Shown: positions 31,256-52,127, counted from the first letter of the stretch. The stretch: 55,824 nucleotides of DNA from Escherichia virus TH28 (MT446402.1); one strand, 5' to 3'. Notes: generated from the sequence alone by a model not told the origin. Numbers and translations: made by a program.

Positions 31256-33370
31256 TTATTGACAGAAGTAGTAAGCGTGTTCGCTCATCAGAAGCTCTTC
31301 GGTTACGATGTTCTCATGATACATCTGAATGCCACCAAGTTGCTTAGACAGATTCTCGAATTGATTGTTGGTTACGAAGATTTCAACATATGCTGCACGA
31401 ATAACTTCCATCATTTTAGGAGCATCAGCTAAGCAGCAACGGAAACAATCATGGATTGAAGTAAAGCCACGAAGACCAGCTTCTTTAGCTTTGACTGCAA
31501 CAGTACGAGCAACCAATGCGTCAATACCTTGAATGTAGTTAACAACGAAGGTACGTTTGAATTCCTCTTTAGTTGGATTGGACTCACGAATGGTCCAAGG
31601 CTTATTCTCCTGAATCTGACCAAAGATGACACGAGTTTGAGAGTCAACACGAATGCTGAATGCATCACAAACATCACGAGATGGGAAGCAAGGTTTCATT
31701 ACAACTTGACCATCAGTGTGCTTATATGTGATGTACTCTTTGTTGAGTTCAACACAACGAGCAAATGCAGCATCAGCAGCTTTCTCGATGAACATGTTAA
31801 TCTTAGCACCCAATGCGTTATGGATTGCTTCAACACAAAGTTCAGCAAATGCTTCGGCTTTCTCCATAGGAATCTGGAGAGCTTCTGTCATGTATGCGGT
31901 GAAATCAGAAGAACCAGTCAATGCAGCTTTACCACCACCATATTGGATAGCCATGTATGGAGTTTTGATAAACTTACGACCAGCTTTCGGATTCAAGAAT
32001 TCATCCATAATTTCAGCGGATGGTTTCATTGAAGAACGGTCAAGCAACTTCAACAGTTCACGAAGAGATAACTGGTATGGGTCAGATGCTTTAGTCTCAG
32101 AATCAACCAGACCTGTAGCACGAGCCATTTCCATGTTACCAGCAATGAATGCCAAGTATTGGGTACCAGAACATTTAGCATCTAAGCCAAAGCCTACACG
32201 AGAATCACACTCACCTGTAGTCTCAAACTTGAACCAATCCAGAGCCAGACGAACATAAGTGAATGGCTTAGAAGGACGCTCACCTTTAGGCATGTTCAGC
32301 ATACGAGCCAAAGAACCAGCAGGATTCTGTGCAACATAAGTTAAACGTTTTGCAGAAGTCCAGTCTCCACCAGCAATATCTTCCAGCTCAAGCATGAACA
32401 TGTTGTATGCCAGAGTTGTTGAGCCATCATCATTAAACTTGCTCACAGTGTTCTCAACATTGTGGGAATACAGGCAACGAGCAAAGTCGGATGATTGTGG
32501 GTTAGGACCAGCACATGCTACATGATACAAACGACCACGGTTATCAGCAAAGTAGTCAGAGAACAGAGTGTCCTGCCCAACCATTGCTACAGCATTGTTC
32601 CAAACATGGAGTTCAGTCTGGATTGCTTCTGGCATCTGTAAGCCACCAAAGGTACGTTGTTCTAACATGGAAGAGATAACCTTAACCATTGTTGCATCAA
32701 CGTGATATTCAGTATCTTGCAGGAATTCGATTGCAGCTTTCAGAGTCTTGGATGGCTTAACTTTGCCACCTTTAACGAAAGGCTTGCGACGAGATTCAGT
32801 TGTTACACGCTCAGTGAATGGAACTGAGGTATCTTTGGTTGTAACCAGCTCAACCCATGCATCAGTCATCTGGAACGATTTGTCCTCGTTCATGGTGATG
32901 AAACCGAAGTGCTTAGCTAAACCAATGAGGTTGATAGCTGGGTCAACATAGTGCATTGCTTTCAGGTCGTTGTTATAACGGTTGGCATCAGCAATAGAAG
33001 CAGAAGCCAGCTCGACCATTGCAATGGCTGGGACAACATCATCACGAGTGAATGACGTCATCATCTTGAAGATTGCAAGAGCAGCAATAGCACAGGTCTG
33101 AGGCTGCATGTAATTCTGTTTCTCTTTGGCACGGTATACCAGAGCCGTGATAGCAGGGACAACGGATTTGATAGTTTGAGTTGAGATAGTTGTCATTTTG
33201 CGAGTCTCCAAGTTAGTTTCGGTTTTAGTTTCGGATTGTGTAGCAGCAGTGATTTCGTCAACCATTTGGTTGCAACGGTCCATCGTATCAAGCACGTCTT
33301 TCCAACCGTGGCCTTCTTCTTTTAAGCGAGCGCCATCAGCAGCCAGTGCGCGATATTCTTCGTTAGTCAT
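31256..33370 (-). CDS. single-subunit DNA-dependent RNA polymerase (T7-like)
   Basis: Motifs DNRGRLY, DAKCSGTQY (motif A), RKFIKTPYMAIQYGGG (motif B), IHDCF (motif C) match T7 RNAP; 704 aa. Confidence 0.85.
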   Translation of the reverse strand: MTNEEYRALAADGARLKEEGHGWKDVLDTMDRCNQMVDEITAATQSETKTETNLETRKMTTISTQTIKSVVPAITALVYRAKEKQNYMQPQTCAIAALAIFKMMTSFTRDDVVPAIAMVELASASIADANRYNNDLKAMHYVDPAINLIGLAKHFGFITMNEDKSFQMTDAWVELVTTKDTSVPFTERVTTESRRKPFVKGGKVKPSKTLKAAIEFLQDTEYHVDATMVKVISSMLEQRTFGGLQMPEAIQTELHVWNNAVAMVGQDTLFSDYFADNRGRLYHVACAGPNPQSSDFARCLYSHNVENTVSKFNDDGSTTLAYNMFMLELEDIAGGDWTSAKRLTYVAQNPAGSLARMLNMPKGERPSKPFTYVRLALDWFKFETTGECDSRVGFGLDAKCSGTQYLAFIAGNMEMARATGLVDSETKASDPYQLSLRELLKLLDRSSMKPSAEIMDEFLNPKAGRKFIKTPYMAIQYGGGKAALTGSSDFTAYMTEALQIPMEKAEAFAELCVEAIHNALGAKINMFIEKAADAAFARCVELNKEYITYKHTDGQVVMKPCFPSRDVCDAFSIRVDSQTRVIFGQIQENKPWTIRESNPTKEEFKRTFVVNYIQGIDALVARTVAVKAKEAGLRGFTSIHDCFRCCLADAPKMMEVIRAAYVEIFVTNNQFENLSKQLGGIQMYHENIVTEELLMSEHAYYFCQ

Positions 33371-33432
33371 GATAAGTCTCCAATTGATTATGATTTAACT
33401 GAAACGGATTAGACTTGCGTAGCCTATTCATA

Positions 33433-33449
33433 ATCACAACCAACTAATG
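33433..33449 (-). promoter_or_regulatory. conserved 17-bp motif copy
   Basis: Plus strand ATCACAACCAACTAATG; 63 nt upstream of RNAP start. Confidence 0.45.
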
Positions 33450-33499
33450 GTAAGGCTAGCTCGTTACAACAGCGTGCTCTGATTGCCTTTGACCTTGAC

Positions 33500-33960
33500 C
33501 CACTACCTAACTTGGTGTTGATTGAAAGCCGATAGGCTATAGGAAAAAGTTGGGGTAGGGACCGTATTTAAGTCCGATAGGACGTTGGGCTTCCCCTCCT
33601 CGGAGATAAAATTTTAAAAATAATAATGACACAACTTCCCCCCCCCCCCGCCACCTCAAAAATAAAATAATATCGCCACAATTCTAGTCTCATTAATATT
33701 GAAACAATTCGAGTCTCATTAATTCCGTAGCAATATTTAAATTAAAAAAAAAAAAATTATATAAAATTTTTATAACATAGTCGGGCTTCTGTTCGAACAA
33801 ATTTCGGCTAGATACAGCTGACCGATTGTGAACGAGTCTATGTCCAGATACAGTTGACCGATCATTTACCATTTGGTTTGAACTTTACGCATTCCTAATA
33901 TTACTTTAAATATTGTAGCAATATTGGGAATAAGTAATATTGAAAACTTACTTATTTTAT
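33500..33960. other. repeat- and homopolymer-rich intergenic region (candidate genome end, origin or packaging region)
   Basis: C12 at 33638-33649, A13 at 33744-33756, direct repeats CAGATACAG(C/T)TGACCGAT at 33811 and 33844, AGTCTCATTAAT at 33687 and 33711, CAATATT-type motifs. Confidence 0.45.
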
Positions 33961-34043
33961 TCTAGCTCAAAGAGAAACGACGCTAACGCATCGAATCTCT
34001 TCTCACATATTAACTGACAAACGTCAGCCTTCACCATACCCAA

Positions 34044-35162
34044 TCATAATTCAAATCCACCTAGAGCATCAGTATCAACTTCGGAGTCAATTTGCCCGAC
34101 CAGATAGGAACTAATCTCCGTTTCCTGTGGAGCAACCTGTACAGCATCCGAATTCAACCATGCGTTAATCCACGGAATCGGGTTAGTTGCACCTTTGAAT
34201 GGAGCATCTAATCCAACTGCTTGCATACGAATATTCGTGATATATTCCACATACCCGCACAGAATTTGCTTGTTTAAGCCAATCATGGAGCCATCTTTGA
34301 ACAGATAATCGGCCCAATCTTTCTCTTGTTGAGCAGCATCTTCGAACAATTTCTGGCACTCTTCACGGCATTCTTGGGCAATTTCACCCATTTCTGGGTC
34401 ATCTTTACCACTCGCAAGAATATTCAACATGTGCTGAGTTCCGGTCAAATGGAGTGCTTCATCTCGTGCAATCAGTCGAATAATCTTGGCATTTCCTTCC
34501 ATTAACTTGCGTTCAGCGAAGGCAAATGAGCAAGCAAAACTAACATAGAAGCGAATTGCTTCAAGTGCGTTGATAGACATGAGGCATAAATAGAGCTTCC
34601 TCTTCAACTCACGAAGACTAATTTCATGACCAGCATGGTTCCCTTCTCCGAACAATTGCCATAATGCAGTGAGTTGTTGAAGCTCGTCATAATATTGGGA
34701 GATGCCAATTGCTCGTGCTTTGATATGCTCGTTAGTTACAATTTCATCAAAGATAATGCTTGGGTCTGTAACGATGTTTCGAATAATGTGGGTGTAAGAA
34801 CGTGAATGGATAGTCTCGGAGAAAGACCAAGTTTCAATCCAAGTTTCAAGCTCAGGAATGCTCACGATTGGGAGCAAAACTGTGTTAGGTCCACGTCCCT
34901 GAATGGAGTCCAGAAGGATTTGATAGCGCAAATTACTGGTGAAAATGTGCTGTTCGTTTGGTGGAAGCTTCTGGTAATCAATGCGGTCTTGTGAAACATC
35001 TACCTCTTCCGGTCTCCAGAAGAATGACAATTGTTTCTCAATCAACTTCTCGAATATGCCATACTTCTGTTGGTCATAGCGAGCAACGTTGACGTTCTGA
35101 CCAAAGAACATTGGTTCTAATAGTTGGTTATTCTTGGTTTGTGAAAAGGTAGTGTAAGACAT
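34044..35162 (-). CDS. nrdB: ribonucleotide reductase class Ia small subunit
   Basis: Long blocks matching enterobacterial NrdB as I recall it ([52 protein letters not shown]). Confidence 0.9.
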
Positions 35163-35164
35163 TA

Positions 35165-35725
35165 TTATTTATTTCCTAAATACTTATAAAATTTATGTCC
35201 ACCATAGGTTCCTCTTCCAACAACTCTTTTGAAATTACATTTCTCTGTAGCTGTGCAGAAGTGGGTGGCATCGGTTACATCTGGGGCATCCAACAATGCG
35301 AAGCTAATTGCCACATTCATGGCGTCCCAAACCTGTTTTGATTCGGTCTTCCAATTTGTTTTAACTATGTTCTTCCACTGAGCATTCTTCTTCTTTGCTT
35401 CTCTTGTCCAAGCAAACTGGTTGCGTTGATATACTACATCGCAAACGGTGTTAGCGAATGGCTTCCCGAATTTGATTCGATTACGGACGACATTAGCTAC
35501 CAGAATCTTTCCATGTTTGCTTTCTCCACGAGCTTCAAACCAAATTACTTTGGCATAGCATTCTATATCTTTGCGTTGAGAAATAGATAGTTTCGGATTT
35601 CCATTTAAATAGGATTGACTTGCAAAATCTGTAATAGTGGCGTTCACTGCCCCAGCCGAAGCTGGGACATTTGCGTGAAACAGACTTACCAACAGAAATG
35701 CAAGAACTTGTGCTGAGGGCATCAT
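35165..35725 (-). CDS. SleB/CwlJ-family cell-wall hydrolase with N-terminal signal sequence (probable endolysin)
   Basis: Motif IWFEARGES ... VANVVRNR ... QRNQFAW; hydrophobic N-terminus; next to holin-like gene. Confidence 0.6.
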
Positions 35726-35740
35726 AGTTCCTTGTTTGCA

Positions 35741-36082
35741 TTATTTGGCCTTCTTAAACCAATTGAGTGGGTTGAGTTGTTTGATTGCAGCAGTGAAGCA
35801 ATCTCGAATTGTGGTAATGATTAGGTTAGCCCCAATCAAACCAATCACCATTGCAGCGATTGTGGCATAACGTGGTTCATCTTTGAATATGTCCACGAAG
35901 CCAGGGAGGGAGAAAACAAACGTACCAATAACCACACAAAGCAGAGCATCGAGAATTGCTTTCAGCAAGCCTTCCTTTTCATATGCCCCACGAATGAGTG
36001 CAGTCAATCCAGCCAGGAGTCCATGAAGAACTCCATACTGGTGCATTGCTTCCCAAATCATCTGGAAAGTTTGTCTATCCAT
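35741..36082 (-). CDS. holin-like membrane protein
   Basis: 113 aa with about three hydrophobic segments and charged C-terminus; adjacent to hydrolase. Confidence 0.5.
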   Translation of the reverse strand: MDRQTFQMIWEAMHQYGVLHGLLAGLTALIRGAYEKEGLLKAILDALLCVVIGTFVFSLPGFVDIFKDEPRYATIAAMVIGLIGANLIITTIRDCFTAAIKQLNPLNWFKKAK

Positions 36083-36612
36083 TAGATTTCATTCCAGTCG
36101 ATTGTCTTAGTTAAGTCCATTCGAGATACAAGGATTCGCTTCTTCTTCAATTCAAGAAGAGCTTCTTCATCACCTTTCTCTTGCATCTTGAGTTCAAATA
36201 CACTATCGAGCAGAGCAATCTGTTCTGACAGGCGTGAGATTGCTTTGCCCTGACGGAACTTGTTGAACAGTATGCGGTTCTCGGTGTGAGGTACAAACTT
36301 CTTACCATCAAACTTCCAGAAGTGCATTTCTTCTGCGACACCTTCTGGCAGGGCATCCAATTCAACTATGTTTCCACCTAGCGGCGTAGCCACAGTGTCA
36401 CCAGGTCCAAAGTCGATATGACGAATAGAGCCATCATTCTCATACACAACCTTGGCAGTTCCATCTTTAAGACTCTTTCGAATCTTATACCAGCACTTAC
36501 CATTCTCGTCACACCCGAAGATAATTTTGTGCTCGTCCTTGAGCACTTGCTGGTTTTCAGTTAAGTTTGTGTTCTCAACAAACCCTTTATAGTTACACAG
36601 AATAGCTGTCAT
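36082..36612 (-). CDS. tail fibre assembly / chaperone-like protein
   Basis: 176-aa ORF directly downstream of tail fibre genes. Confidence 0.35.
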   Translation of the reverse strand: MTAILCNYKGFVENTNLTENQQVLKDEHKIIFGCDENGKCWYKIRKSLKDGTAKVVYENDGSIRHIDFGPGDTVATPLGGNIVELDALPEGVAEEMHFWKFDGKKFVPHTENRILFNKFRQGKAISRLSEQIALLDSVFELKMQEKGDEEALLELKKKRILVSRMDLTKTIDWNEI

Positions 36613-37945
36613 ACCATGTTCCGTTCATATATTTCTGCAATTTACGACGACCAACGTAGTCAATAAATTCATCAGAAGTTGTGTTATAGCACGATGTAAT
36701 GACCCAACCAGATTCATCGCGGTAGCCAGGGCCACGCCATGCAGCAGTTTCTTGGTAGGATGCTAAACGAATGTCACTCATGAAATAGGCATTGACCCAA
36801 TTCTCTCGTGCAAATCGGAAAGGACCGCCATTACCAGTGTAGTCGATGTTACCATCAAGGCCGAACATCCAGTTATGTACTGCTCCGTCATCGCTTCGGC
36901 GTGAAATTACAGGACTTGAGAAGTCCGATGTTCTGGTGTATGCACCAAAGGAAATCCAAGAGCCATATCCATAACCAGTTGTGATTGTGTTCAATGTTGC
37001 AAGAGGAACCCAGGAATCTGGGCCAACTTCACAACTGTACACACCATAAGGAACGTTGCCATCTGCCTCTTGTCCCCAGCCACGACCCCAAGTTATGCCG
37101 CGATATTGACCAAGCAAGTGGAGCTTAAAGTCTTGACCAGTGCCAAGTAATTTAAGTTGGTTGTACCCTTCTGCGATAAGACGTGCAGTGAAGTCTAAAC
37201 CAGAGTTTGCATAGTGGAAGTCAATAAACGGCGTATTGTTATACAACTCTATTGCAGCAACTTCTGTGGTGCGGTCACGCTGCAAGACTCGTGCAAGCTC
37301 TCTCCAGTTGGCCCAATTCTGCGAGGCATCTAGTGTACGACTTCGAACCCAGACGTTGCCATAGATTGAAGTATAGCGTTGCTGAACATTATACGCAGAT
37401 GGAAGAACTTCCAAAGTACCAGCCATTGCTGCCGGATAGCCGCCAGCAGAGCCAGCAACAGCATCAGACTCTTGATAGTAGATACCAACATCTGACGCAC
37501 CTGTAAGCAGGTTAATGTTCATGTTTGAGGCATTCTTACAAGTCATTACAGCATGTGCTGTGTACACCCTGCTACCAGATGTGCCTTGCGAGTAGTACAT
37601 AATCGGAGGCCGTGCTGCGTTACCATGTGTTACCAAGATTGAAGCATTGCTGTTATCAGACACGCCAAGAACAGTAATGATTACATACGCACCGCTTACA
37701 GAAGATAAGTCCCACTTCTGCAACTCTGGGGGAACGTTGACAGCAGAGTTCATCTCAACGTAGAGAACTTCACCATTTACAAAAGTGTATGTATTGAAGT
37801 TGAAGTTTCTTACAAATGCCGTGGTTGGAATCTGGGCATTCTTTTGTCCAACAGTGATTACCTCACCACGAGCAGTACCTGCATTTAAGAATGCAGCAGA
37901 CTTTAAGGCGGCAACTAAGCCGCCAAATGACCAACCTTTAGCCAT
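36593..37945 (-). CDS. tail fibre protein
   Basis: 450 aa, Gly/Ser/Thr/Tyr-rich beta-type composition; in fibre block. Confidence 0.5.
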   Translation of the reverse strand: MAKGWSFGGLVAALKSAAFLNAGTARGEVITVGQKNAQIPTTAFVRNFNFNTYTFVNGEVLYVEMNSAVNVPPELQKWDLSSVSGAYVIITVLGVSDNSNASILVTHGNAARPPIMYYSQGTSGSRVYTAHAVMTCKNASNMNINLLTGASDVGIYYQESDAVAGSAGGYPAAMAGTLEVLPSAYNVQQRYTSIYGNVWVRSRTLDASQNWANWRELARVLQRDRTTEVAAIELYNNTPFIDFHYANSGLDFTARLIAEGYNQLKLLGTGQDFKLHLLGQYRGITWGRGWGQEADGNVPYGVYSCEVGPDSWVPLATLNTITTGYGYGSWISFGAYTRTSDFSSPVISRRSDDGAVHNWMFGLDGNIDYTGNGGPFRFARENWVNAYFMSDIRLASYQETAAWRGPGYRDESGWVITSCYNTTSDEFIDYVGRRKLQKYMNGTWYDSYSV

Positions 37946-37954
37946 TACATTACC

Positions 37955-39346
37955 TTATAAAGTGGATATTTGGTTTGGTGTCATCTTGAAATCCCAAACT
38001 CGGAAGTTACGAACCGCATAGTTTCTTGATGTTGGGCGATAGTGAATCTGTGGGTATCTTCCGACACATGCAGCAGCAGCATTCTGAGAAGTATCAGAAG
38101 CTACACGAACACCATCAACATAAATCTCAAGGCCAGTGGTTGTGCTAAGGGTTGCAACAATACGATACCAACGATTCACCTGGGCAGGAAGATTATAGTA
38201 AATCCAATCACTAGCTCCAGAGGCATTTCGGTTAATATTAAGCTGACCTTTGTTCTGCAAATAGAAATCTATGTTCTCGTTATTCAACCCATTTAAGGAA
38301 AAGAATACGCCAACAGAATCATCACTACTCGGTGCACGAGGTGTATTAGATAGGATGTCTACACAGATTGTGCAGTCCATAAAACCATATCCAACACCTT
38401 CATACATCACATCCAGATTATCTTGTCCAGCAGGTCGATACAAAGCACCACCGTAAGCATTGTTGAAGTACAAGCTATCGGGGGCGTTAATTGCACCCTT
38501 TCCATAATAGATGTTGAAATCACCAATCAAATGCTGGCAGAAGTTTGGTTCTGGTACAGCATACTTTGGTTCTTCACGAGCCTTAACTTCTGCAAATGTT
38601 GCATCAGTAATGATTCGAGAGTTGGTGTTTGTTGAAGCCTTTCCAACAACTGGAACACCACTGGCATCCAGACCAATACGTGTATCACCAGACTGCATGT
38701 AGAAGCCAGCAGGACCGAATGACAACTTTGTGGTTCCACTTGCATCAAACAACATACCTTGCTGGAACGTAACAGGTCCGGTATAAGTGCCGCCAATGAT
38801 AGGTACAGCACCTGCCTGAGCAGCAGTTACTTGATGGGGATTGTTTCGGTCGTTGGCGTGACTTGCAACAAGGGCATTATATTGAGCAATCAACGAATCG
38901 ATTTGTGCTTTGTTGTATGCACCAATCATGTTGGCTGTTAGTCTGTGTGGGTTAGAAGTAACATCTGCAATGTGTGCAGAAATCTTACTAACAATATCGT
39001 CGTAGTCATAACGAGATACTTGAATCGCACTTGCAGCCCACTGCCCTAAGTTCTGGCTAGGGCGCAGAGTACGACTAGGAGAACCAACAGTTGCAACATA
39101 AACAGTTCGAGTTGCATCATCCCACACAAGGGAACCAAGTCCGTACTGAACATCGGTTCCCCATTCGAAGACACCACGTTCAGCTAATGCCAGAAGAGTA
39201 GTGTCAACCTTATACTGCAAATAGTTAAGAACCTGGAAGGTTGGGATTTCTGCAATCCACCCTTGAAGATATTTAGCATCTCCTGGGTCACGCCGTAAGT
39301 TGGCGTTGTTCGAAGTCCAGACTCTATTAAGTTTTGGTCTTAACAT
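37955..39346 (-). CDS. tail fibre protein
   Basis: 463 aa; fibre-like composition. Confidence 0.5.
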   Translation of the reverse strand: MLRPKLNRVWTSNNANLRRDPGDAKYLQGWIAEIPTFQVLNYLQYKVDTTLLALAERGVFEWGTDVQYGLGSLVWDDATRTVYVATVGSPSRTLRPSQNLGQWAASAIQVSRYDYDDIVSKISAHIADVTSNPHRLTANMIGAYNKAQIDSLIAQYNALVASHANDRNNPHQVTAAQAGAVPIIGGTYTGPVTFQQGMLFDASGTTKLSFGPAGFYMQSGDTRIGLDASGVPVVGKASTNTNSRIITDATFAEVKAREEPKYAVPEPNFCQHLIGDFNIYYGKGAINAPDSLYFNNAYGGALYRPAGQDNLDVMYEGVGYGFMDCTICVDILSNTPRAPSSDDSVGVFFSLNGLNNENIDFYLQNKGQLNINRNASGASDWIYYNLPAQVNRWYRIVATLSTTTGLEIYVDGVRVASDTSQNAAAACVGRYPQIHYRPTSRNYAVRNFRVWDFKMTPNQISTL

Positions 39347-43490: not shown

Positions 43491-43821
43491 CTACAATGAA
43501 GAGGAACATTTGTCGCCAAGTGTAGACCTCTTCTCCTGGGCTTACAGTATTCGTAACGTACATGTTCGGAAGTGGTGTACTGTATTGCTTAAGAATATCA
43601 ATACCACCACGAATTGGGATTCCGTAAATCTTTTCAGATGCACCCCAAGCAAGGTCAAACATGTAACAGTTTAAATACTCGTTTAAATACAATGCAGACA
43701 TTTTGACTGTGATTCCACGAAACTCAAAAGATACATCCTTTGAAATATCGTATGGAACAGTCTTCACATATCCTGGAGGGAGTAGTGATAATATTTCTTG
43801 CAGTGCTTGTTGTTCTGTCAT
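43459..43821 (-). CDS. baseplate / tail hypothetical protein
   Basis: 120-aa ORF in baseplate block. Confidence 0.35.
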   Translation of the reverse strand: MTEQQALQEILSLLPPGYVKTVPYDISKDVSFEFRGITVKMSALYLNEYLNCYMFDLAWGASEKIYGIPIRGGIDILKQYSTPLPNMYVTNTVSPGEEVYTWRQMFLFIVDASVLERGES

Positions 43822-44768
43822 TTGAACAGTCTTCCTTTAACCGAGGACAGTGGAGATTCAAGTTTGGCAAGTTTGTCTTTCAACGTACCAAGTTGACTCA
43901 CTGCCGTAGCACCTACTGCACCCAGACCTGGGAGAGATATGCCAGCACCACCGAGAGCACCTATTCCAGCACTTTGAGCAATCTTCCCAAACTCAGAGTA
44001 GTCTGTCATGGATTGCATTGCTTTACGTGCTTCGATTGCCAATGTATCTTCACCAATAACCTGCAATTCTTCCAGCGTGATTTCAACAGCCAGTATCGCA
44101 GAAGTCATCTTGTCAGTCTTAGTTCGAATGCCTGTTACTACGCAATTCAAATAAGGCCCAATGATGGTGGAGATGTACAGCTTGGTTCCGGTCGAACGGA
44201 AGTTGTTGAACAAATCATAGGTAGACTGAATTCGGTTGCTTGTTTCAAATGCAGAAGCAACAGCACCAGCAGCAGCACCAATGATTGGGATGATTGGGTT
44301 ATTAAAGATTGCACCAGTGGCAACAGATAAACCCTGAACAGAAGCAGTCCACATTGCAGCGTTCTGCATGTTTGTTGCAACAGCAGTTAGCTTTAGGATT
44401 CGGTTCTGTTTGATGATGTGGTCACTTACCATGAAGCCCGAACTTACAGGGAACTTGGTAACGACTGATTGAGCATCATGCTCTTCACTAACCATTGCAT
44501 CAAACTTAAAAGAGTTGAAGCTCTCTGGAACCGAAGACATAACAAGGGATTCCATTGTCTTGGCAATGCCGCCAAAGGCTTTACCAAACAATCCTTCATC
44601 TTCTTTCTGAACCGATGGGCCATTTGACCACATGATTACAGATGGGTTATGCCCGTAGCTAAATGCTTTTGACAGGGATGATAATCCATCCCCGATAAGA
44701 CTTGTATCAATTAATGCCATTAGAAAGACTCCATAGCCATTCCACTGTTTAGGTAGGCTTGCTGCCAA
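43818..44768 (-). CDS. tail / baseplate structural protein
   Basis: 316-aa ORF in baseplate block. Confidence 0.4.
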   Translation of the reverse strand: MAASLPKQWNGYGVFLMALIDTSLIGDGLSSLSKAFSYGHNPSVIMWSNGPSVQKEDEGLFGKAFGGIAKTMESLVMSSVPESFNSFKFDAMVSEEHDAQSVVTKFPVSSGFMVSDHIIKQNRILKLTAVATNMQNAAMWTASVQGLSVATGAIFNNPIIPIIGAAAGAVASAFETSNRIQSTYDLFNNFRSTGTKLYISTIIGPYLNCVVTGIRTKTDKMTSAILAVEITLEELQVIGEDTLAIEARKAMQSMTDYSEFGKIAQSAGIGALGGAGISLPGLGAVGATAVSQLGTLKDKLAKLESPLSSVKGRLFK

Positions 44769-45826
44769 GCCGCTTCTTTACCGCCCATTGCAGTATTGCC
44801 ACCAAGCATTGCAGTGATGGTTGTTTGGAAAACAGTTTCATGGGTTGAGCCATGATGGACAACTTCTGTAATGAAGTATTTATCTTCCATCGCCCAACGG
44901 AACACGCTCTGGTCTGTGTTAAGAACAACACCCTTTCCAGTTACAGAGGTTACACCATTCGCCAGCAATTGTTCTCCCAACAAAGGAGATACATCAAGAA
45001 TCATTCCTGGCTGATAACTCGCATTCAGAAATGTATTCAATGAATATGTTGCAATGCCAGCAATAGGATTCCCAATAACCTGGTTGGCATCCAGCTTGAT
45101 TGGTTCACGGTCTTTTGACATTCTATCTACAGCATCTTTGTTGCCGTAGGTATCTGGGAAGATTTGAATCTCACCAGTAGTTACAGAGAATAGTAAATTG
45201 TATTCTCCAAGCAGGGTTCGGAACTCTTCCAAGAATGTGTCATGGAATACTCGACCCAACTTCAACTGAGATTTGAATACAGACTCTTCAACACCAAAAG
45301 ATGAAATAGTGGAGAAGCCGTAATCCGCACACATAGAACGAATGGCATCTTCCAACGTTGCACCATTTGGAATATCTTTCATCTGAGTAAATTCAGTAGA
45401 TGCACCATAGGCTTTGGAGATGCAGAACAATTGTGTTACGTGTTCTGGAGGACGTCTGAATCCAACTGCGTTTGTTACTATGCCAGAGAAGATTGTTGGG
45501 AGGATTTGACCAATCTCAATCCTTACTTCCGAATCAGCCTGACTTGGGCTTTGATACTTACTGTGACCAGCATTAACAATGCGCTCGTCTTCATAGTATC
45601 CTGCACGAATTTCAATATACATATCACCATAGGACTTGTCTTGAAGGAATTTAACTTCATCAACGCCCAGGTTGTATAGAGTAATATCGGCAGTATCTGC
45701 GGGCCAACCAACAGTTGACCGGATGGTGAAATCAATCTTGTGCGCTTTAAACACAGACTTGGTTTCTGGGTCATCCTTTCTTGAGACAACTATCTCTATA
45801 CCACGCATCCACGGCATGTTATACAC
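44720..45826 (-). CDS. baseplate hub-like protein
   Basis: 368-aa ORF directly after tape-measure-position gene. Confidence 0.4.
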   Translation of the reverse strand: MYNMPWMRGIEIVVSRKDDPETKSVFKAHKIDFTIRSTVGWPADTADITLYNLGVDEVKFLQDKSYGDMYIEIRAGYYEDERIVNAGHSKYQSPSQADSEVRIEIGQILPTIFSGIVTNAVGFRRPPEHVTQLFCISKAYGASTEFTQMKDIPNGATLEDAIRSMCADYGFSTISSFGVEESVFKSQLKLGRVFHDTFLEEFRTLLGEYNLLFSVTTGEIQIFPDTYGNKDAVDRMSKDREPIKLDANQVIGNPIAGIATYSLNTFLNASYQPGMILDVSPLLGEQLLANGVTSVTGKGVVLNTDQSVFRWAMEDKYFITEVVHHGSTHETVFQTTITAMLGGNTAMGGKEAAWQQAYLNSGMAMESF

Positions 45827-45892
45827 CTATTGAAATTAATACATATTCAAATAATATTAAAGAGGAATGCCGAGACGAATCCCGGCACTTTC

Positions 45893-48800
45893 TTATCTAC
45901 GTTCCATTGCACCATTACCCATGTTGATTGTTTGGGTAACAGTTTGACCGTTCGGAGTTGACACGGTTGCAGACGCTTGCTTGTTGTTCACAGTAGCTTT
46001 GACTTCAACGTTAACTACAGTGGCCTGTGTCTGACCATAAGACAGTCCGTTTCTGGTGAAGCCAGTTGCACCTTCTGCGATAGAATCACCCTGAGAAGCC
46101 CATTCACGGTACTTCTTGACGCGGTTCTGTGCCTGTAGAGGAACAGCATTGAGCCAGTCGGTTCCGTGTTTGTTGATAGCATCATCAACAGTTCCAGCAC
46201 CATCCGTATACGCCGCCATAGCCTTCTCAGCGTCACCATTATAACGCTTGAGCATTGCATCATAGTAGTCACGACCAACGCGAGCACGTTCTTCCAGTGA
46301 GTTATCACGGGCAGGTTTAACGCCAAATCCTGGGTCACGGGAAGTTGAATCAAGAACCTGCATACGACCTTTGGCACCAGTCGGAGATGTAACCACCGAA
46401 CCATCTGCGTTCAAATCGCGGTTCCCTGACTCTTCTCCTGCGATAAAGTCATATACCGTTCTGGTAGTATCAGCTAAACCATTTGACGCTGTACGCGCTA
46501 CTCTGGCCGCATCTCCACCTGCTTCGATAAATGAACTCCCGTATGATATTGCAGCTTGCGGGACTGCGTATCCTGGCAGCACCCCAGCACGCTCCGTCTG
46601 CGCTATTCCTAGCTGTGCAATACCATCGGCATACTGTGAGTTGGCACCACGGCTTACGTTCTCCTGAGCCTCGTTCACGCTGTAATCTGTACGGTCATAG
46701 GCGCGAGCCATGCCATCCAGACCTGCCATCTCCATAGCGCCAGCGATACGAGCCTGACTCCAGCCCCGCTCCTGACCACGTTCACGCATTACCCGCGCTA
46801 AGGCCACAGGGTCGCCCTGTGCCGCACGAATGTCGCCAATAGTGATAAGACCACGGGTTCCCTGAACGATGTTGACAGCGCCGCTAGGGTCGCCATTCAG
46901 GAGGGTGTTATAGGCACTATGTGTGGTTCGATTGAGTCGGCCAGCTTGTTGCTGATTAAGCCCCAACATCTCCAAGCCCTGTGACATGGAAGAATATTCA
47001 TTAGGGTTATTGACACCAGCGTCTAAAGAGTTTCCGTAGAAATCGTTCAGACCTTCGAGCGCCTCGTTACCAATCTGGGTAGCACCGATAGCCATACCCG
47101 CCACACGTCCCCACGGGGTCATCATGAGGGCATTCATTGCACCATTGGATAGTGAGCCTATGCTACCGCCAGCTACGCCAGCAGCCAATGCGCCACCAGC
47201 ACGACCGAAGTCATCTGAGAAGCTGCCACCAGTATTCCAACCACGACCGCCACCGCCACCGGAACCACCCCCACCAATGCCATAACTACTAGCATCGAAG
47301 GTGTCCCAGAAGCCGCCACCACCGCCACGACCACCATTGTCCCCGAAGTCGGCATCTTGTCCACGCAGCTTATTTTCTTCCTGAGCAGCGAGGATACCTT
47401 TCTTGACAGATACTGCCATCAAGTCATTGCCAGTTGTGCTGTCAGAGCCTACGGCAGAGGCTGTGGCTTCCCCAACTCCAGCACTGGTACGGTTGCCTAT
47501 GAATGGGTCATCGGCTGTACCAGCAGCGGCAGAGTAGCCACGCGTTGACTTCTGCTTAACATCCTTCCAGATACCATCGCCAGTCATTGCAGCACGAGCA
47601 CCTTTGATTAAATCATCATTGGACAAGTCTGAATTAGCTTCAACAAACTCTCGACCAGCATTAAGACGACCAATAGTAGAATCAATCTTATCTTTGTTGC
47701 GTTCGTACCATCCCTCGTCCTTCTCAATCCATTCCGATACCGTCTTGTCTCCGATTGTCTGAGAGAACAATGCACGACTACGGCCAGATACAAGCATGCC
47801 AAATTGAAGTTGGTCGAGATAGTCCTTATGCTCACCAGCAGACAGGTTAGAAAACTTCTTAGCCCTTTCAGGGTTCTTGTGTTCCCAAATCGCGTCATCA
47901 CCGATAAGACCATCTGGGGAATACATGAACGACGGATAATTGTCATTTGTTATTGCGCCAGCTTGCTCAATGTCGAATCCAAATTCTTTGGCGACACGGT
48001 TACGAGCAACTTCTTCCGTCCGATGACCTGCTTCGAACATTCGTTGAGTAAATTCACTTGGCCCCTTTCCGCGTTGTAGGCCAATCTTATCAACCATTGC
48101 AGCCCAGGGTCGGTTGTATTCATTGTTACCAAGAAACGAGCCAACAGTGGAACCAGTAATGTCATATTGCTTGCGGAAGTCTAACCATTCCTGAGTGCCC
48201 TGTTCCATGTTGTGATAACGGATTGGGCCTTCTTGCGGAGCTGGCTGTGGAGCAGAGTCCAAATTAGATATAGCAATGCTCTCACGACGAGAGCGAGCAG
48301 AGTTCCAACTTGTTGGAGAATCAAGTTGTGCAATAAACTCTGTTGAAGGACTTAATTCAGTAGGTCCAGTATTTCTTAAACGTTCAGCAGGGTCAAATGT
48401 TCGAGAAACTTCTGCCTCATTATATTGGTGAGCATTCTCAAGAACACCACGAATTGATGTACCAGAGTAACGAGGGTCGTCACCAATATCTTTCTTAAGG
48501 TTATCGTAACCGGAACGAACATCTGCAATGTCTGCATAACGAGAAGCAGAGTCCAGGATTAAATCTCTGTCAGAAGATTGAGTGCGATATGCATTCATTC
48601 CTCTTTCAGCACCACCAGAATAAACCTTTGCCGCAGATTTAACTACGCCAGAAACATCTTGGTAGAGTGTCTTGCTTGCATCAGACCAACCTGGAGAACC
48701 AGACAAGGATGCAGATAGGGAATATTCAGACTTGATACCTCCACCAAATGAACCTATCGGAAGACCAGATGCGTTAAGAGGCTGTCGAGGATGCAGAATA

Positions 48801-49570
48801 TCTCCAACAACAGATTCAGAACCAAGTTGAGGTAATGAATCCATGTATGAAAGTTTTGGCCCCGACTTATTTCCTACATTCATTGCAGATACGGCAGCAA
48901 CTTCTCGGAAGTTTTGCGGCAATTCTGATTCTAAACGTTTGGCTACACGATAAACATCTCGTGCATAGCGGTCTGGGTTGTCGTATTGTTCACGGTCAAC
49001 ATACATGTGAGCAAGATAGCCAAATGACTTGGCAATATCTCCACGGTTTGTGGAATATTCATCCATAATATTACCGGTATAGTGTCCGGCAAGTTCAGGC
49101 ATTATATCTTGATGACCTGCAAGAGTATCTCGCATGTACGAGTTAAGCATTCCCCAATGACCTTCCGGCTTGTTGGGGTTGGCTTTAGGCATGTGCATCC
49201 AAACATCATCAGCGGATACACCAAGTTGTTCCATGTATGCGTGAACTGCTTCTACATGGTGTCCTGGTCCGTTCATTGCAGCATGGAATGTTTCAGTCAG
49301 CCCAGCGCCAGAAATCATCTGTGCTATATGTGCTGCATCTGAAATCATATCAGAAGTCCCGTATGAAGTTTCATCCTCATACATCTGGGAATCTGGTTCG
49401 CCCAAAAGCTGTGAATTTGTTTCCATCCAACCTGACGCAGCACTTGATTCAAGTTGCTGGGCCATATCTCGTTTGCGCATACCAGGATTGAAGGACAGAC
49501 CGTACTGAGCACCCATGCCGATTAGTTCGGCCTCGGATAGCTTCATTAAATCTTTTAAGTTCTTAGCCAT
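45893..49570 (-). CDS. tape-measure-position protein with YqaJ-like nuclease domain, Gly-rich segment and C-terminal lytic transglycosylase domain
   Basis: 1225 aa; residues about 455-600 carry QGTQEW...ITGS, SPDGL, WEHK (PD-(D/E)XK YqaJ pattern); residues 740-810 are Gly-rich; residues about 1040-1140 carry the SLT motif GEESGN...SPTGAKGRMQV. Confidence 0.7.
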   Translation of the reverse strand: MAKNLKDLMKLSEAELIGMGAQYGLSFNPGMRKRDMAQQLESSAASGWMETNSQLLGEPDSQMYEDETSYGTSDMISDAAHIAQMISGAGLTETFHAAMNGPGHHVEAVHAYMEQLGVSADDVWMHMPKANPNKPEGHWGMLNSYMRDTLAGHQDIMPELAGHYTGNIMDEYSTNRGDIAKSFGYLAHMYVDREQYDNPDRYARDVYRVAKRLESELPQNFREVAAVSAMNVGNKSGPKLSYMDSLPQLGSESVVGDILHPRQPLNASGLPIGSFGGGIKSEYSLSASLSGSPGWSDASKTLYQDVSGVVKSAAKVYSGGAERGMNAYRTQSSDRDLILDSASRYADIADVRSGYDNLKKDIGDDPRYSGTSIRGVLENAHQYNEAEVSRTFDPAERLRNTGPTELSPSTEFIAQLDSPTSWNSARSRRESIAISNLDSAPQPAPQEGPIRYHNMEQGTQEWLDFRKQYDITGSTVGSFLGNNEYNRPWAAMVDKIGLQRGKGPSEFTQRMFEAGHRTEEVARNRVAKEFGFDIEQAGAITNDNYPSFMYSPDGLIGDDAIWEHKNPERAKKFSNLSAGEHKDYLDQLQFGMLVSGRSRALFSQTIGDKTVSEWIEKDEGWYERNKDKIDSTIGRLNAGREFVEANSDLSNDDLIKGARAAMTGDGIWKDVKQKSTRGYSAAAGTADDPFIGNRTSAGVGEATASAVGSDSTTGNDLMAVSVKKGILAAQEENKLRGQDADFGDNGGRGGGGGFWDTFDASSYGIGGGGSGGGGGRGWNTGGSFSDDFGRAGGALAAGVAGGSIGSLSNGAMNALMMTPWGRVAGMAIGATQIGNEALEGLNDFYGNSLDAGVNNPNEYSSMSQGLEMLGLNQQQAGRLNRTTHSAYNTLLNGDPSGAVNIVQGTRGLITIGDIRAAQGDPVALARVMRERGQERGWSQARIAGAMEMAGLDGMARAYDRTDYSVNEAQENVSRGANSQYADGIAQLGIAQTERAGVLPGYAVPQAAISYGSSFIEAGGDAARVARTASNGLADTTRTVYDFIAGEESGNRDLNADGSVVTSPTGAKGRMQVLDSTSRDPGFGVKPARDNSLEERARVGRDYYDAMLKRYNGDAEKAMAAYTDGAGTVDDAINKHGTDWLNAVPLQAQNRVKKYREWASQGDSIAEGATGFTRNGLSYGQTQATVVNVEVKATVNNKQASATVSTPNGQTVTQTINMGNGAMERR

Positions 49571-49841
49571 TGTCTTCTTCTTTAGGTTTTAGTTCATTAC
49601 GCAAATCAAGTATTGCGTGGAAAGTTAACAAATCCATAATAGAGTAGGTCCCGTCCGAGAGTTCTTTAAGAGAACAGAGAGAACTGTCCTCTATTACAGG
49701 ACGGTGCAGGAAGTATTTTATTTCCGGGAACTTCTGAGTTAAATCGTTTCCGGACTCGAATTCTTCTGCTCGGCCATTTTGGATGCTTCCACCGCCTCCA
49801 ATTGTCTGCGTTCGTTGAGTTCGAGCCCTTGCTTGAAAAAA
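49563..49841 (-). other. -1 frame extension of tail assembly chaperone (frameshift product)
   Basis: From the slippery heptamer the -1 frame stays open for about 92 codons and stops at 49563-49565, overlapping the next gene's ATG at 49568-49570. Confidence 0.5.
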
Positions 49842-50197
49842 TCAAGGAAGTTCGATTCAAGAACAAATGCAAACACATGGTGCATGAGCATTAAATTGCC
49901 GTTGTACTTCATCTGCATAGTGCGTGGATTAACTTCGACACCATCAATGGTTGCCATACACACTACACGTTTAATTAATTCTGTTACTTCCGTATGAGTT
50001 CCACCCTGCTGCATCAAATGAATAATGTCTGCAAAGTTATATTTGTTCTCAACGAATGGGAATATCGAAATACCGAGTTTCTGAACAAGCTCGACTTGGA
50101 GGTCAAGAGCTTGGCTGGCACCGAGTTGTCGCGTACCAACCAAGACTGTCTCACCAGAGTCGGCTTGTAACTCGCGTTGGCGAAGTTCACAAGCCAT
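49739..50197 (-). CDS. tail assembly chaperone
   Basis: 152-aa ORF between tube and tape-measure-position genes; contains slippery site. Confidence 0.55.
   Translation of the reverse strand: MACELRQRELQADSGETVLVGTRQLGASQALDLQVELVQKLGISIFPFVENKYNFADIIHLMQQGGTHTEVTELIKRVVCMATIDGVEVNPRTMQMKYNGNLMLMHHVFAFVLESNFLDFFKQGLELNERRQLEAVEASKMAEQKNSSPETI
49835..49841 (-). promoter_or_regulatory. -1 ribosomal frameshift slippery heptamer U UUU UUC
   Basis: Minus strand gat-ttt-ttc with zero-frame codons UUU UUC (X XXY YYZ pattern). Confidence 0.5.
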
Positions 50198-50211
50198 GCT
50201 CTTACCTTATA

Positions 50212-50667
50212 TTAAACGCCGATTTCTGGATACTGGCCAGTCACGATGGTGAGGCGTTCTACAAACACAGCCCACATATTCGAAGTGAAGGTTACACCAC
50301 GAACGATTGCTGGCTGTTGCAGAATTGCACCGTTGACACCGTTAACCAGTACGTCACCCATCTTGTCAACCAATTGCAACTGCAAAGGTTCCCAGAGGGA
50401 TTTGTTACCAGACAAACCAGTTGCACGAGTAAGCTGTGCACGTTGGTAAAGGATTTCGTTCCAGTCTGCCGTTTGCAGCAGTGGGAAAGTGATAACCCCA
50501 GACTGGTCAGCAGTGGTTGCTACAGCAAGTTTGCCGTAAGCATCCATAACAGGAACATGCTGTGGCACGTTGTAGCGTGCCGTAATTACAGATTGCCCTG
50601 CCTGAAAACCGTCTACACGAGCACCGTCAATCAGGAGGTCTGTATTATAAAACGAATATTGCTTCAC
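50212..50667 (-). CDS. tail tube protein
   Basis: 151 aa between sheath and chaperone genes. Confidence 0.5.
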   Translation of the reverse strand: MKQYSFYNTDLLIDGARVDGFQAGQSVITARYNVPQHVPVMDAYGKLAVATTADQSGVITFPLLQTADWNEILYQRAQLTRATGLSGNKSLWEPLQLQLVDKMGDVLVNGVNGAILQQPAIVRGVTFTSNMWAVFVERLTIVTGQYPEIGV

Positions 50668-50676
50668 TGTTCACCC

Positions 50677-52125
50677 TTACTGAATGAAGTTGCCAGAGAT
50701 TACAGCACCCTGGATTGCACCGGAACCGATAGCAATAAAGGAAGTACCTTCCCAAATACGTTCACCCTTCTGCGACTGCAAGAGTTCTAACGGAGTAGAA
50801 ATAACTTTGTAGCCTTCTGGATAGAAGACGCCTTCGTTATCATAGCCAGGGGCAATGAGGCCGTTAGTCTTAGCGAGTTCGAGCGCCAGGGTTACTTGCT
50901 GGTTAACCATTGCTACACCAGTGTCCGTCCAAGGAATCTTGGTAGTGGAGGTGTAGAACAAGTTGAACACGTTCAGTCGAACTTTCTGAGTCAGCCATTC
51001 AACACCTTGTACGGAGTCGAACCATGTGCCGTCAGCCATACGACCGTTGTAGAACATTACGTTGCCAGCAACAGAAATGAATGCGTTACCACCACAAGAA
51101 AGCAGCGCACTTACCTGCCCAGAAGACAGGTCAGCAGTGGCGATACCTGGACCTTTCTTGTATGCCAGAATAAGAACAGAGTTTGCAACGTTAAAGTTAA
51201 CAGTTGATGCACGACCCAGGATAGAAATTTCCGGATATTCATCACCATTCGCAGAAGCATCGTAAACACACAGAGTGTTACGCAGGTTCTGGTTCTTAGC
51301 ACGACGGAAGCTGTTATCAGTGCCGTTGATAAGAATGTTCTTGTCGTTATCACCCCAGCCAAATACTTTGCTGGATGCTTCACACCACTTCGCCACAGAC
51401 ATTTGGTTGTCTACTGGAGAGGTTTTGCCACGATACTGGCGGTCAAGGCCCACATAGAAGAAGTTGAATGGAGCATCTGCAATATTAGACAAGTCGGAAG
51501 AAATGGATAGCTCGTTCTTACCAGCAACAATAACTGCGCTGTCAGAAGATTGCAGTTTCAGTACTTCACCAACTTTACCACCAACGTTGCTGATAGTTGC
51601 GTTGATGCCAGTTGCAGAAGTGGTCAGCTTGAACTTGCCAGCTTCCTGAGTAACAGTTACGCCAGCACCAACAGAAGATAGTGCAGTAGTTACTAGAGTT
51701 GCAACTTCTTCGAAGTCAGCAGCAGCAGAGAAATCAATCGGGTCAGTAACATACTGAACACCGCTAACACTTAACTGCATGGTTGCAGCAGTTTCCAGCT
51801 TAATGGTTGCCAATACAGCAGCAGTTGCAGCAGTAACAGTGGCAGGAGTTGCTGGAGTCAAAGTATCGTACTTGATAGCACCAACCAGGAAAGTCTTCGG
51901 AGTTGGCTTCTGCGAGTACCAAGAGGTAGCAGCTTTAGCAATCTCACCACCAGGGAAGTCTGCGAGAACTTCTTTCAAACTGGTATAGGAACGAACCGGA
52001 TATACATCAACGGTCGGTACAAACTCTTTGCTCATAAAGAGCAATGGCCCAAAACCATCGGTCGCAATGGCGTTCGGGGAGATTGCGATATCAACCTGAA
52101 CTAAATCAGAAATTGGGATTGACAT
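50677..52125 (-). CDS. tail sheath protein
   Basis: 482 aa immediately upstream of tube gene; size and position fit Mu/P2-type sheath. Confidence 0.5.
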   Translation of the reverse strand: MSIPISDLVQVDIAISPNAIATDGFGPLLFMSKEFVPTVDVYPVRSYTSLKEVLADFPGGEIAKAATSWYSQKPTPKTFLVGAIKYDTLTPATPATVTAATAAVLATIKLETAATMQLSVSGVQYVTDPIDFSAAADFEEVATLVTTALSSVGAGVTVTQEAGKFKLTTSATGINATISNVGGKVGEVLKLQSSDSAVIVAGKNELSISSDLSNIADAPFNFFYVGLDRQYRGKTSPVDNQMSVAKWCEASSKVFGWGDNDKNILINGTDNSFRRAKNQNLRNTLCVYDASANGDEYPEISILGRASTVNFNVANSVLILAYKKGPGIATADLSSGQVSALLSCGGNAFISVAGNVMFYNGRMADGTWFDSVQGVEWLTQKVRLNVFNLFYTSTTKIPWTDTGVAMVNQQVTLALELAKTNGLIAPGYDNEGVFYPEGYKVISTPLELLQSQKGERIWEGTSFIAIGSGAIQGAVISGNFIQ

Positions 52126-52127
52126 TA

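Follow-up and report, generated by a model that had tools for sequence, protein, structure and literature searches.

Chaseviruses are myoviruses with dsDNA genomes of 52-56 kb and a G+C content of 39.3-52.5%, and the ICTV profile defines the family Chaseviridae by the pairing of a contractile tail with T7-type polymerase and replisome genes. According to the same profile, these phages carry an Autographiviridae-like single-subunit RNA polymerase, encode a phage polymerase together with a helicase/primase, and possess non-permuted genomes with direct terminal repeats of ~3 kb. The pairing has been an accepted hallmark of the family since 2008 and is stated in the title of the GJ1 paper, in the papers on PYps23T and PP101, and in review papers on Pectobacterium phages. 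For relatives, the contractile-tail morphology is documented by published electron microscopy.

Our analysis concerns a window of 55,824 nucleotides, the whole stretch of DNA under study, in which an earlier note had read a mosaic of T7-like polymerase and replisome genes with a Mu/P2-like contractile tail. Positions 8131-55824 of the window are 99.975% identical to positions 4-47692 of Escherichia virus TH33 (MT446406), which is classified in Chaseviridae, Cleopatravirinae, and the region 31256-52125 is 100% identical to this phage. Nucleotide similarity (100% and 99.98% to TH33, 93% to PYps23T), a repeat unit of ~52.0 kb, a G+C content of 0.44 and the single-subunit RNA polymerase described below are all as expected for a member of the family. 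The group formed by TH33, GJ1, ST32, Mangalitsa and PYps23T (Carltongylesvirus and unclassified phages) agrees with the window in gene order, genome size and G+C content, and in having every gene on a single coding strand. Among the 69 phage records that match 31256-52125, 21 are colinear over at least 80% of the region, and none was seen to lack either the polymerase module or the tail module. The window almost certainly represents a virulent phage of E. coli from the TH33, GJ1 and ST32 group of the Chaseviridae, Cleopatravirinae, whose genome is given here as a circularly permuted assembly. Both the genome and its genes are identified directly, and no evidence contradicts the chasevirus identification.

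RNA polymerase, replication genes and candidate promoters

The polymerase, replication, packaging and head genes are as follows.

31256-33370, minus strand: single-subunit T7-family RNA polymerase (PHROG 414, E 1.8e-94; PF00940, E 2.1e-19)
31221-31248, minus strand: intrinsic terminator-like hairpin with a 12-pair stem and T run, directly after the polymerase stop codon
26577-26954, minus strand: single-stranded DNA-binding protein (PHROG 7364, E 8e-43)
15443-17206, minus strand: gp4-type primase-helicase with Toprim and DnaB-like domains (PHROG 239, E 2.3e-145; Toprim, DnaB_C, AAA_25)
13442-15376, minus strand: family A DNA polymerase (PF00476, 42.1 bits, cut-off 34.3; PHROG 17, E 9.5e-98)
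11255-12316, minus strand: 5'-3' exonuclease, FEN / T7 gene 6 type (PF02739, 34.4 bits, cut-off 34.3; PHROG 107, E 1.8e-60)
10719-11243, minus strand: HNH / endonuclease VII-type nuclease, neighbour of the ligase
9974-10729, minus strand: ATP-dependent DNA ligase (profile matches)
6264-8282, minus strand: terminase large subunit (PHROG 38, E 3e-96)
53879-54886, minus strand: major capsid protein (PHROG 264, E 5e-85; PF09950), with a second copy at 1811-2818 that is ~90% identical in DNA

The earlier note had placed a T7-family RNA polymerase at 31256-33370, and an open reading frame with both family profiles lies at exactly these coordinates; the gp4-like primase-helicase, family A DNA polymerase and gene 6-like exonuclease that it named are also present, all three outside 31256-52125. 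The polymerase comprises 704 aa from the ATG at 33370 or 646 aa from the ATG at 33196, the latter being the start kept in relatives. The 58 codons in between form a lineage-specific in-frame extension that is common to 12 records and absent from PYps23T and ST32. The PF00940 match reaches 70.1 bits (cut-off 22) across aa 387-679, and the PHROG 414 alignment spans aa 45-703. In addition, the catalytic motifs of T7-family polymerases are present: motif A (LDAKCSGTQY) aligns to FDGSCSGIQH at T7 D537, motif C (SIHDCF) aligns to LIHDSF at T7 H811-D812, and motif B, read in the translation, is RKFIKTPYMAIQYGG, corresponding to the T7 segment with K631 and Y639. Kinship with T7 is secure at the profile level only. 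Pairwise comparison with T7 RNA polymerase is marginal (phmmer, E 0.003), a profile of six polymerase sequences had no PDB match at E 0.001 or better, no Pfam match to the N-terminal promoter-binding domain was found in the protein, and a single-sequence AlphaFold model was unusable (pLDDT 38).

Like T7 and the Autographiviridae, this phage encodes, at its predicted left genome end, a single-subunit RNA polymerase whose catalytic motifs are conserved. Transcription in one direction and genes for a gp4-type primase-helicase, family A polymerase, 5'-3' exonuclease, ligase and single-stranded DNA-binding protein are also common to them, and direct terminal repeats are predicted here as well. In contrast, the polymerase has 646-704 aa here and 883 aa in T7, the predicted terminal repeat of ~2.3-3.2 kb includes the polymerase gene whereas that of T7-related phages is below 200 bp (184 bp cited), and T7 has a short tail where this phage has contractile-tail genes.

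A 17-nt motif recurs at intergenic sites in the window.

33434-33450, minus strand: copy 1 of ACATTAGTTGGATGTGA, candidate phage promoter, 64 nt upstream of ATG 33370
31123-31139, 30272-30288, 27028-27044, 23106-23122, 22966-22982, 21009-21025 and 13318-13334, minus strand: further copies of ACATTAGTTGGATGTGA
8306-8322, minus strand: ninth, slightly divergent copy, CCATTAGTGGATTGTGA, 24 nt upstream of terminase ATG 8282

The window holds eight matches to ACATTAGTTGGATGTGA, all on the minus strand, against 0.29 expected by chance. The ninth copy, which heads the late genes, has a position-weight-matrix score of 22.3, and the best-scoring background site after it reaches 7.6. All nine are intergenic and on the coding strand, and the motif is kept in relatives from at least four genera. 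These copies are the best candidates for phage-specific promoters. Their sequence is unrelated to the T7 promoter consensus. The ICTV profile lists the promoters of chaseviruses as not identified.

The contractile tail module and its lineage

The tail and lysis genes, with the ribonucleotide reductase beta subunit, are as follows.

52128-52646, minus strand: tail completion / terminator protein (PHROG 12771, E 6e-77; PF23961)
50677-52125, minus strand: contractile tail sheath, DUF3383 family, 482 aa (PHROG 205 'tail sheath', E 8.7e-93)
50212-50667, minus strand: tail tube protein, 151 aa (PHROG 280, E 2.4e-29)
49739-50197, minus strand: tail assembly chaperone (49563-50197 with the shifted frame; PF21822)
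45893-49570, minus strand: tape-measure-position virion protein, 1225 aa (PHROG 19855, PF09588, PF01464)
44720-45826, minus strand: baseplate hub, gpD position (PHROG 196, E 4e-46; PP101 orthologue labelled 'P2 gpD family')
43818-44768, minus strand: Dit-like tail tube initiator (PF21821, E 8e-21; PHROG 17031)
43459-43821, minus strand: small baseplate protein weakly resembling the Pam3 gp18 plug (PHROG 16481; PF22479, 21.3 bits, under the cut-off of 24.2)
42696-43490, minus strand: central spike with phi92 gp138-type OB-fold N-terminal domain (PF18352, E 6e-18; solved puncturing proteins)
42325-42696, minus strand: gpW/gp25-like wedge protein (PHROG 120, E 6e-26)
41195-42349, minus strand: Baseplate J-like wedge protein (PF04865; PHROG 6, E 1e-50; solved wedge proteins down to 1.5e-31)
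40542-41186, minus strand: DUF2612 baseplate protein, gpI position (PF11041; PHROG 587)
39346-40545, 37955-39346 and 36593-37945, minus strand: three tail fibre genes (with the assembly gene, PHROGs 8147, 5454 and 136; Laminin_G_3, Caudo_TAP)
36082-36612, minus strand: tail fibre assembly protein (same PHROG and Pfam set)
35741-36082, minus strand: holin
35165-35725, minus strand: endolysin
34044-35162, minus strand: ribonucleotide reductase beta subunit
33978-33993: terminator-like hairpin after the ribonucleotide reductase beta gene

The earlier note had called the 482-aa and 151-aa proteins sheath and tube from size and synteny, and in HMM searches both match families of these names. The sheath also matches the solved sheaths of Pam3 (8.8e-14) and XM1 gp6 (8.9e-13), and the tube matches the solved tube proteins 9mt4_P (1.7e-7) and Pam3 (1.8e-3). 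The frameshifted chaperone lies, as proposed, after the tube gene and before the tape measure gene: a slippery site, T_TTT_TTC, at 49841-49835 is followed by a 92-codon -1 frame to 49565 (stop 49565-49563), and Erwinia phage Y2 and PYps23T keep both this site and the peptide of the -1 frame. A tape-measure-position gene is likewise present in the late region, and virion mass spectrometry of 4HA13 detected sheath and tape measure proteins. Within 31256-52125, the stretch 34044-35725 (ribonucleotide reductase beta subunit and endolysin) is not tail. The core of the earlier reading is borne out: a T7-family polymerase and a T7-style DNA metabolism set share one genome with contractile tail genes. 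By analogy with electron micrographs of relatives, and in line with its genes, this phage is expected to have a contractile tail.

The label 'Mu/P2-like' fared less evenly, holding for gene order and remote homology and failing at the level of family profiles. The tail module may truly belong to the P2/Mu lineage of tails, although we consider this unlikely compared with its placement in another simple contractile-tail lineage. The P2/Mu order is kept throughout, from completion protein, sheath, tube, frameshifted chaperone and tape measure to hub, tube initiator, spike, W, J, I-position, fibres and fibre assembly; the PP101 record assigns the tail orthologues to the P2 families gpS, D, U, V, W, J and I; Baseplate_J and Caudo_TAP domains occur; and the spike C-terminus weakly matches Mu gp45 (E 0.04). 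Against this lineage, the sole Pfam match of the sheath is DUF3383, the type of Pam3, XM1 and phi92, and the tube has no Pfam match at E 0.01 or better, leaving neither protein in a P2/Mu Pfam family. Of the proposed hub, spike, W, J and I order, the hub, the Gp138_N spike, the W-like protein (by PHROG 120 only, with no Pfam match) and J (PF04865) stand, but the I position is filled by DUF2612 and not by the P2 gpI family. Searches with the tail proteins gave no sequence-level match to P2 proteins, and neither the Dit-like nor the Pam3-plug-like protein belongs to the canonical P2 set. Among solved proteins, the closest are those of Pam3, Vibrio phage XM1, phi92, Pseudomonas phage E217 and unnamed recent cryo-EM entries, with Mu represented solely by the weak spike match. 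The cryo-EM tails of these four nearest solved relatives provide homologous sheath, tube, J-like wedge and spike N-terminal domains, while the looser likeness to P2 and Mu consists of gene order and the frameshifted chaperone pair. Unlike all six, this phage has nuclease and transglycosylase domains in its tape-measure-position protein and three fibre genes.

Genome ends and the origin of the pairing

The RNA polymerase gene adjoins the tail genes solely because the assembly is circularly permuted, and a conserved sequence marks where the virion DNA probably begins.

33556-33573, minus strand: conserved sequence TTAAATACGGTCCCTA, predicted physical left genome end (homology with relatives)

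In each of the Y2, PM1, 4HA13 and Mangalitsa records, the first bases are homologous to TTAAATACGGTCCCTA, the record ends of 4HA13 and Mangalitsa being PhageTerm predictions. Homology thus predicts a physical end at ~33572 and a direct terminal repeat from ~33572 down to ~30780 that is collapsed in this permuted assembly. By the same comparison, the virion DNA would be linear, with ~52 kb of unique sequence and a direct terminal repeat of ~2.3-3.2 kb containing the RNA polymerase gene.

Where its two ends overlap, the window shows only ~90% identity, which suggests a mixed-strain assembly. The left overlap copy resembles PYps23T (96%), and the right one is the same as TH33 (100%). Identity to TH33 is lacking over the initial 3.8 kb of the window, and, compared with the TH33 group, the first 2.8 kb repeat the capsid and head-tail genes at 90% identity in a version nearer PYps23T.

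A recent recombination peculiar to this genome, which would make the mosaic new, is highly improbable, as the architecture is family-wide, reaches genera with 67-72% polymerase protein identity, and has been in the literature since 2008. Least probable of all, to the point of dismissal, is an assembly chimera of T7-like podovirus and unrelated myovirus contigs, given that the one real sign of mixed template, the ~90% end overlap, is confined to the capsid and head-tail genes and leaves the module junctions unaffected, while the same colinear polymerase-replisome-head-tail order occurs in the independently isolated phages Y2, PM1, PP101, 4HA13, Mangalitsa and PYps23T (at least five genera), which are backed by electron micrographs and virion proteomics. 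The T7-type polymerase and contractile tail mosaic is an old, family-wide trait and not peculiar to this genome. The pairing was correctly observed in the earlier note but was already known, being the published definition of Chaseviridae.

Proposed life cycle and a nuclease domain in the tape-measure-position protein

Our reading of the gene set suggests the following life cycle. The left genome end would enter first, and the host polymerase would express the phage single-subunit RNA polymerase, which would in turn read the early, middle and late gene blocks, starting at phage-specific promoters; the last motif copy lies ahead of the terminase and of all the structural genes. The DNA would be replicated by the T7-style set of primase-helicase, family A polymerase, single-stranded DNA-binding protein, 5'-3' exonuclease, endonuclease and ligase. 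It would be packaged into a capsid bearing a simple contractile tail, with sheath, tube, frameshifted chaperone pair, tape measure, hub/spike/W/J-type baseplate and three fibre proteins as the putative tail parts.

Two domains lie within the tape-measure-position protein: an intact nuclease domain of YqaJ / lambda-Exo type at aa 455-602 and, towards the C-terminus, an SLT lytic transglycosylase domain at aa 1060-1136. The nuclease domain matches the 3SYY exonuclease (4e-7) and retains the PD...E-x-K motif; its conservation clearly exceeds that of the remainder of the protein, which as a whole is 46% identical to Y2 gp76. Ejected tape measures bearing a nuclease of recombination type are not known to have been characterised. 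In the boldest reading, the tape-measure-position protein would bring an active 5'-3' exonuclease of lambda-Exo/YqaJ type into the host along with the DNA; separately, the nine-copy motif would be the promoter of the chasevirus polymerase. We regard this reading as speculative and rather doubtful. If true, the injected nuclease could resect the ~3 kb terminal repeats so that the ends anneal, or could attack host or competitor DNA.

Reading the sequence alone recovered the phage architecture correctly. The pairing as stated matters little, as it rediscovers the defining trait of the Chaseviridae in an already deposited genome. An explicit candidate promoter for the chasevirus polymerase could give a new orthogonal transcription tool, and the conserved nuclease domain in a virion tape-measure protein offers a lead on the non-DNA cargo of contractile-tailed phages.

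A phage RNA polymerase and a contractile tail in one genome

Profile searches confirm the earlier note's observation that a T7-like RNA polymerase and replisome are combined with a contractile tail; every component call holds, and the mosaic interpretation is supported. All substantial ORFs of the window (G+C 0.44) lie on the - strand. Megablast against GenBank phages aligns 31256-52125 at 100% identity with Escherichia virus TH33 (MT446406; Chaseviridae, Cleopatravirinae), and in a full comparison TH33 4-47692 aligns with window 8131-55824 at 99.975% identity. The same megablast search matched 31256-52125 to 69 phage records, 21 of them colinear over at least 80%, from phages of Escherichia, Yersinia, Shigella, Erwinia, Pectobacterium and other hosts.

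The T7-family single-subunit RNA polymerase gene (31256-33370) matches PHROG 414 (E 1.8e-94) and Pfam PF00940 (70.1 bits). Pairwise similarity to T7 RNA polymerase is weak (phmmer E 0.003); in this same weak alignment, LDAKCSG corresponds to motif A (T7 D537) and SIHDCF to motif C (H811-D812). The translation reads RKFIKTPYMAIQYGG at the presumed motif B. A PDB search with a profile of six chasevirus polymerases returned no match at E ≤0.001, and a single-sequence structure model reached a pLDDT of 38. There are two candidate starts, each preceded by the ribosome-binding sequence TTGGAGAC. The ATG at 33196 gives 646 aa, as annotated in the relatives ST32 and PYps23T, and the ATG at 33370 adds an N-terminal extension of 58 in-frame codons (33197-33370). 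Twelve phage records, among them TH23, TH33, Mangalitsa, Bp10 and SKA49, carry this extension and annotate it as part of the polymerase; PYps23T and ST32 lack it.

The replisome genes lie outside 31256-52125, the range that the earlier note gave for the mosaic. They include the gp4-like primase-helicase (Toprim and DnaB-like; PHROG 239, 2e-145), the family A polymerase and the 5'-3' exonuclease, together with a single-stranded DNA-binding protein, a ligase and an HNH/endonuclease VII-type nuclease. Among other genes, a ribonucleotide reductase beta subunit (34044-35162) is the last gene of the genome, and the scanned ORFs include no alpha subunit. Publications mention a beta subunit gene for ST32 and the relative GJ1 as well. 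ARAGORN reported one doubtful tRNA-like gene at 19552-19621 (-), with its anticodon not called, and a tRNA-Arg or tRNA-Leu has been reported in some relatives.

In the tail module, the sheath matches PHROG 205 (E 8.7e-93) and Pfam DUF3383, and the solved Pam3 and XM1 sheaths are recovered at about 1e-13. The 151-aa tube resembles solved tube proteins (1.7e-7) and, less strongly, the Pam3 tube (1.8e-3). The frameshifted chaperone (PF21822) is well supported because a canonical T_TTT_TTC heptamer (49841-49835) lies exactly where the -1 frame opens, and Erwinia phage Y2, which belongs to another genus, keeps both this heptamer and the -1 peptide. The -1 frame is open for 92 codons, to 49565, and overlaps the start of the next gene, whose 1225-aa product (45893-49570, -) occupies the tape-measure position. 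The proposed hub/spike/W/J order is borne out by a PHROG 196 hub, a Gp138_N-type spike, a PHROG 120 W-like protein and Baseplate_J. A Dit-like tube initiator (PF21821) and then a small plug-like protein lie between hub and spike, and Baseplate_J is followed by a DUF2612 protein, three fibre genes and a fibre assembly protein.

Some of the earlier note's descriptions need qualifying or correcting. The label "Mu/P2-like" fits gene order and remote homology but not the profile level, where the sheath is DUF3383 and the tube has no Pfam match. In the GenBank record of the relative PP101, the orthologues are labelled as P2 gpS, D, U, V, W, J and I families, whereas the closest solved homologues of the window tail proteins are those of Pam3, XM1, phi92 and E217. 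The I-like baseplate gene holds by position but not by profile, which is DUF2612. Finally, the low end of the proposed late region (34044-36082) encodes holin, endolysin and the reductase beta subunit, which are not tail genes.

A 17-nt motif as candidate promoter

The 17-nt sequence ACATTAGTTGGATGTGA occurs in eight copies at ≤3 mismatches, all on the coding strand, against a chance expectation of 0.29. A position-weight matrix adds a ninth, 24 nt upstream of the terminase ATG (8322-8306), which scores 22.3 versus 7.6 for the best background site.

Copies of the 17-nt motif
33434-33450 (-), motif copy
31123-31139 (-), motif copy
30272-30288 (-), motif copy
27028-27044 (-), motif copy
23106-23122 (-), motif copy
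22966-22982 (-), motif copy
21009-21025 (-), motif copy
13318-13334 (-), motif copy
8306-8322 (-), motif copy

All nine are intergenic. They are placed ahead of the polymerase gene, just past its terminator, among the early genes, ahead of the single-stranded DNA-binding protein gene and ahead of the block running from a 299-aa ORF to the exonuclease and ligase genes, and the last copy heads the late block of terminase and structural genes. The motif is also found on the coding strand in PYps23T, Y2, PM1, PP101 and 4HA13, spanning at least four chasevirus genera, and its positions after the polymerase and before the single-stranded DNA-binding protein gene are kept in relatives despite diverged flanks. 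A host sigma-70 promoter is not indicated, as no consistent -10 element lies downstream of the motif; sigma-70-like sites in 17-36 kb show no enrichment (37 found versus 41.8 expected).

The motif is a candidate cognate promoter of the phage RNA polymerase. By genome anatomy and analogy with T7, the polymerase gene would be transcribed as a separate unit at the genome's left end, because terminator-like hairpins follow the reductase gene (33993-33978) and the polymerase gene (a strong one, 31248-31221), and the enzyme would use the motif as promoter. The roughly 1.5 kb past the polymerase terminator (29724-31221) carries two motif copies and small ORFs of ≤72 aa, with no ORF of at least 80 aa. 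For PP101, eight consensus promoters have been hypothesised by its authors, given in a figure only, and the ICTV profile describes chasevirus promoters as not yet identified. None of the papers covered by our search prints the motif sequence, and chaseviruses are absent from a NAR 2025 survey of T7-like promoters.

Genome ends and a permuted assembly

The records of Y2, PM1, 4HA13 and Mangalitsa open with the conserved sequence TTAAATACGGTCCC, the left ends of the last two being PhageTerm predictions. Its copy in the window occupies 33556-33573, some 200 nt ahead of the polymerase ATG. By homology with Mangalitsa, a terminal repeat would extend from ~33572 to ~30780, with the polymerase gene inside and the right boundary in the roughly 1.5-kb stretch past the polymerase terminator. 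In virion DNA with this predicted repeat, the tail, lysis and reductase genes would come last, at the far right; it is the permuted assembly alone that brings polymerase and tail genes side by side in the window. Between the reductase terminator and the predicted end, non-coding sequence at 33640-33760 (-) contains long runs of about G13 and T13 and AT-rich repeats, all probably prone to sequencing error or length variation.

The motif itself could be taken for an end-generating signal in the Yersinia phage PYps23T (MW147598). Its 2339-bp terminal repeat was derived experimentally, by PCR on ligated DNA, and both repeat boundaries fall at the same point in two motif copies, TTGGA^YGTGA (positions 1, 2339, 52531 and 54869; window counterparts 33438 and 31128). 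As a general signal it fails in Y2, PM1, 4HA13 and Mangalitsa, where the left ends lie about 200 nt further upstream, at TTAAATACGGTCCC, and no right boundary coincides with a motif copy. The PYps23T ends may reflect either an effect of the method or a real difference in end formation.

The window exceeds one genome in length, its repeat unit being about 52.0 kb, because its ends repeat each other: 1-2836 matches 52073-54902 at 89.9% identity and 3214-3800 matches 55217-55806 at 95.9%. The left copy (1-2836) is closest to PYps23T (96%), and its right counterpart is 100% identical to TH33. Between its capsid and protease genes each copy has a small gene (2859-3203 versus 54931-55182), and these two are not homologous. 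Rather than a true capsid gene duplication, the overlap is most likely a wrap-around assembly of a mixed lysate.

A nuclease domain in the tape-measure protein

The tape-measure-position virion protein contains a YqaJ/lambda-Exo-type nuclease domain (Pfam PF09588, 44.3 bits), and residues 455-602 match the exonuclease 3SYY at 4e-7. SPDGLIGD...WEHKNP aligns with the PD...E-x-K motif of PD-(D/E)XK nucleases, and the domain is apparently intact. An SLT transglycosylase domain follows (aa 1060-1136). Compared with its Y2 counterpart, gp76, the protein is 46% identical overall; the nuclease block is visibly better conserved, with MYSPDGLIGDD..WEHK invariant. Outside the family, a homology search with the domain returned only three stand-alone YqaJ proteins (30-34% identity) and no other tape-measure context. 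G+C is raised to 0.52 over 46-48 kb, at the tape-measure gene.

The window phage is an ordinary member of the Chaseviridae, which the ICTV profile describes as having myovirus morphology, 52-56 kb genomes and a single-subunit RNA polymerase. Sheath and tape measure proteins have been detected by mass spectrometry in 4HA13 virions, and the pairing of a T7-type polymerase with a contractile tail has been restated in papers following the ICTV profile. The polymerase/tail mosaic is real, old and family-wide, and is already known rather than new; of the leads, only the candidate promoter and the tape-measure nuclease merit pursuit.
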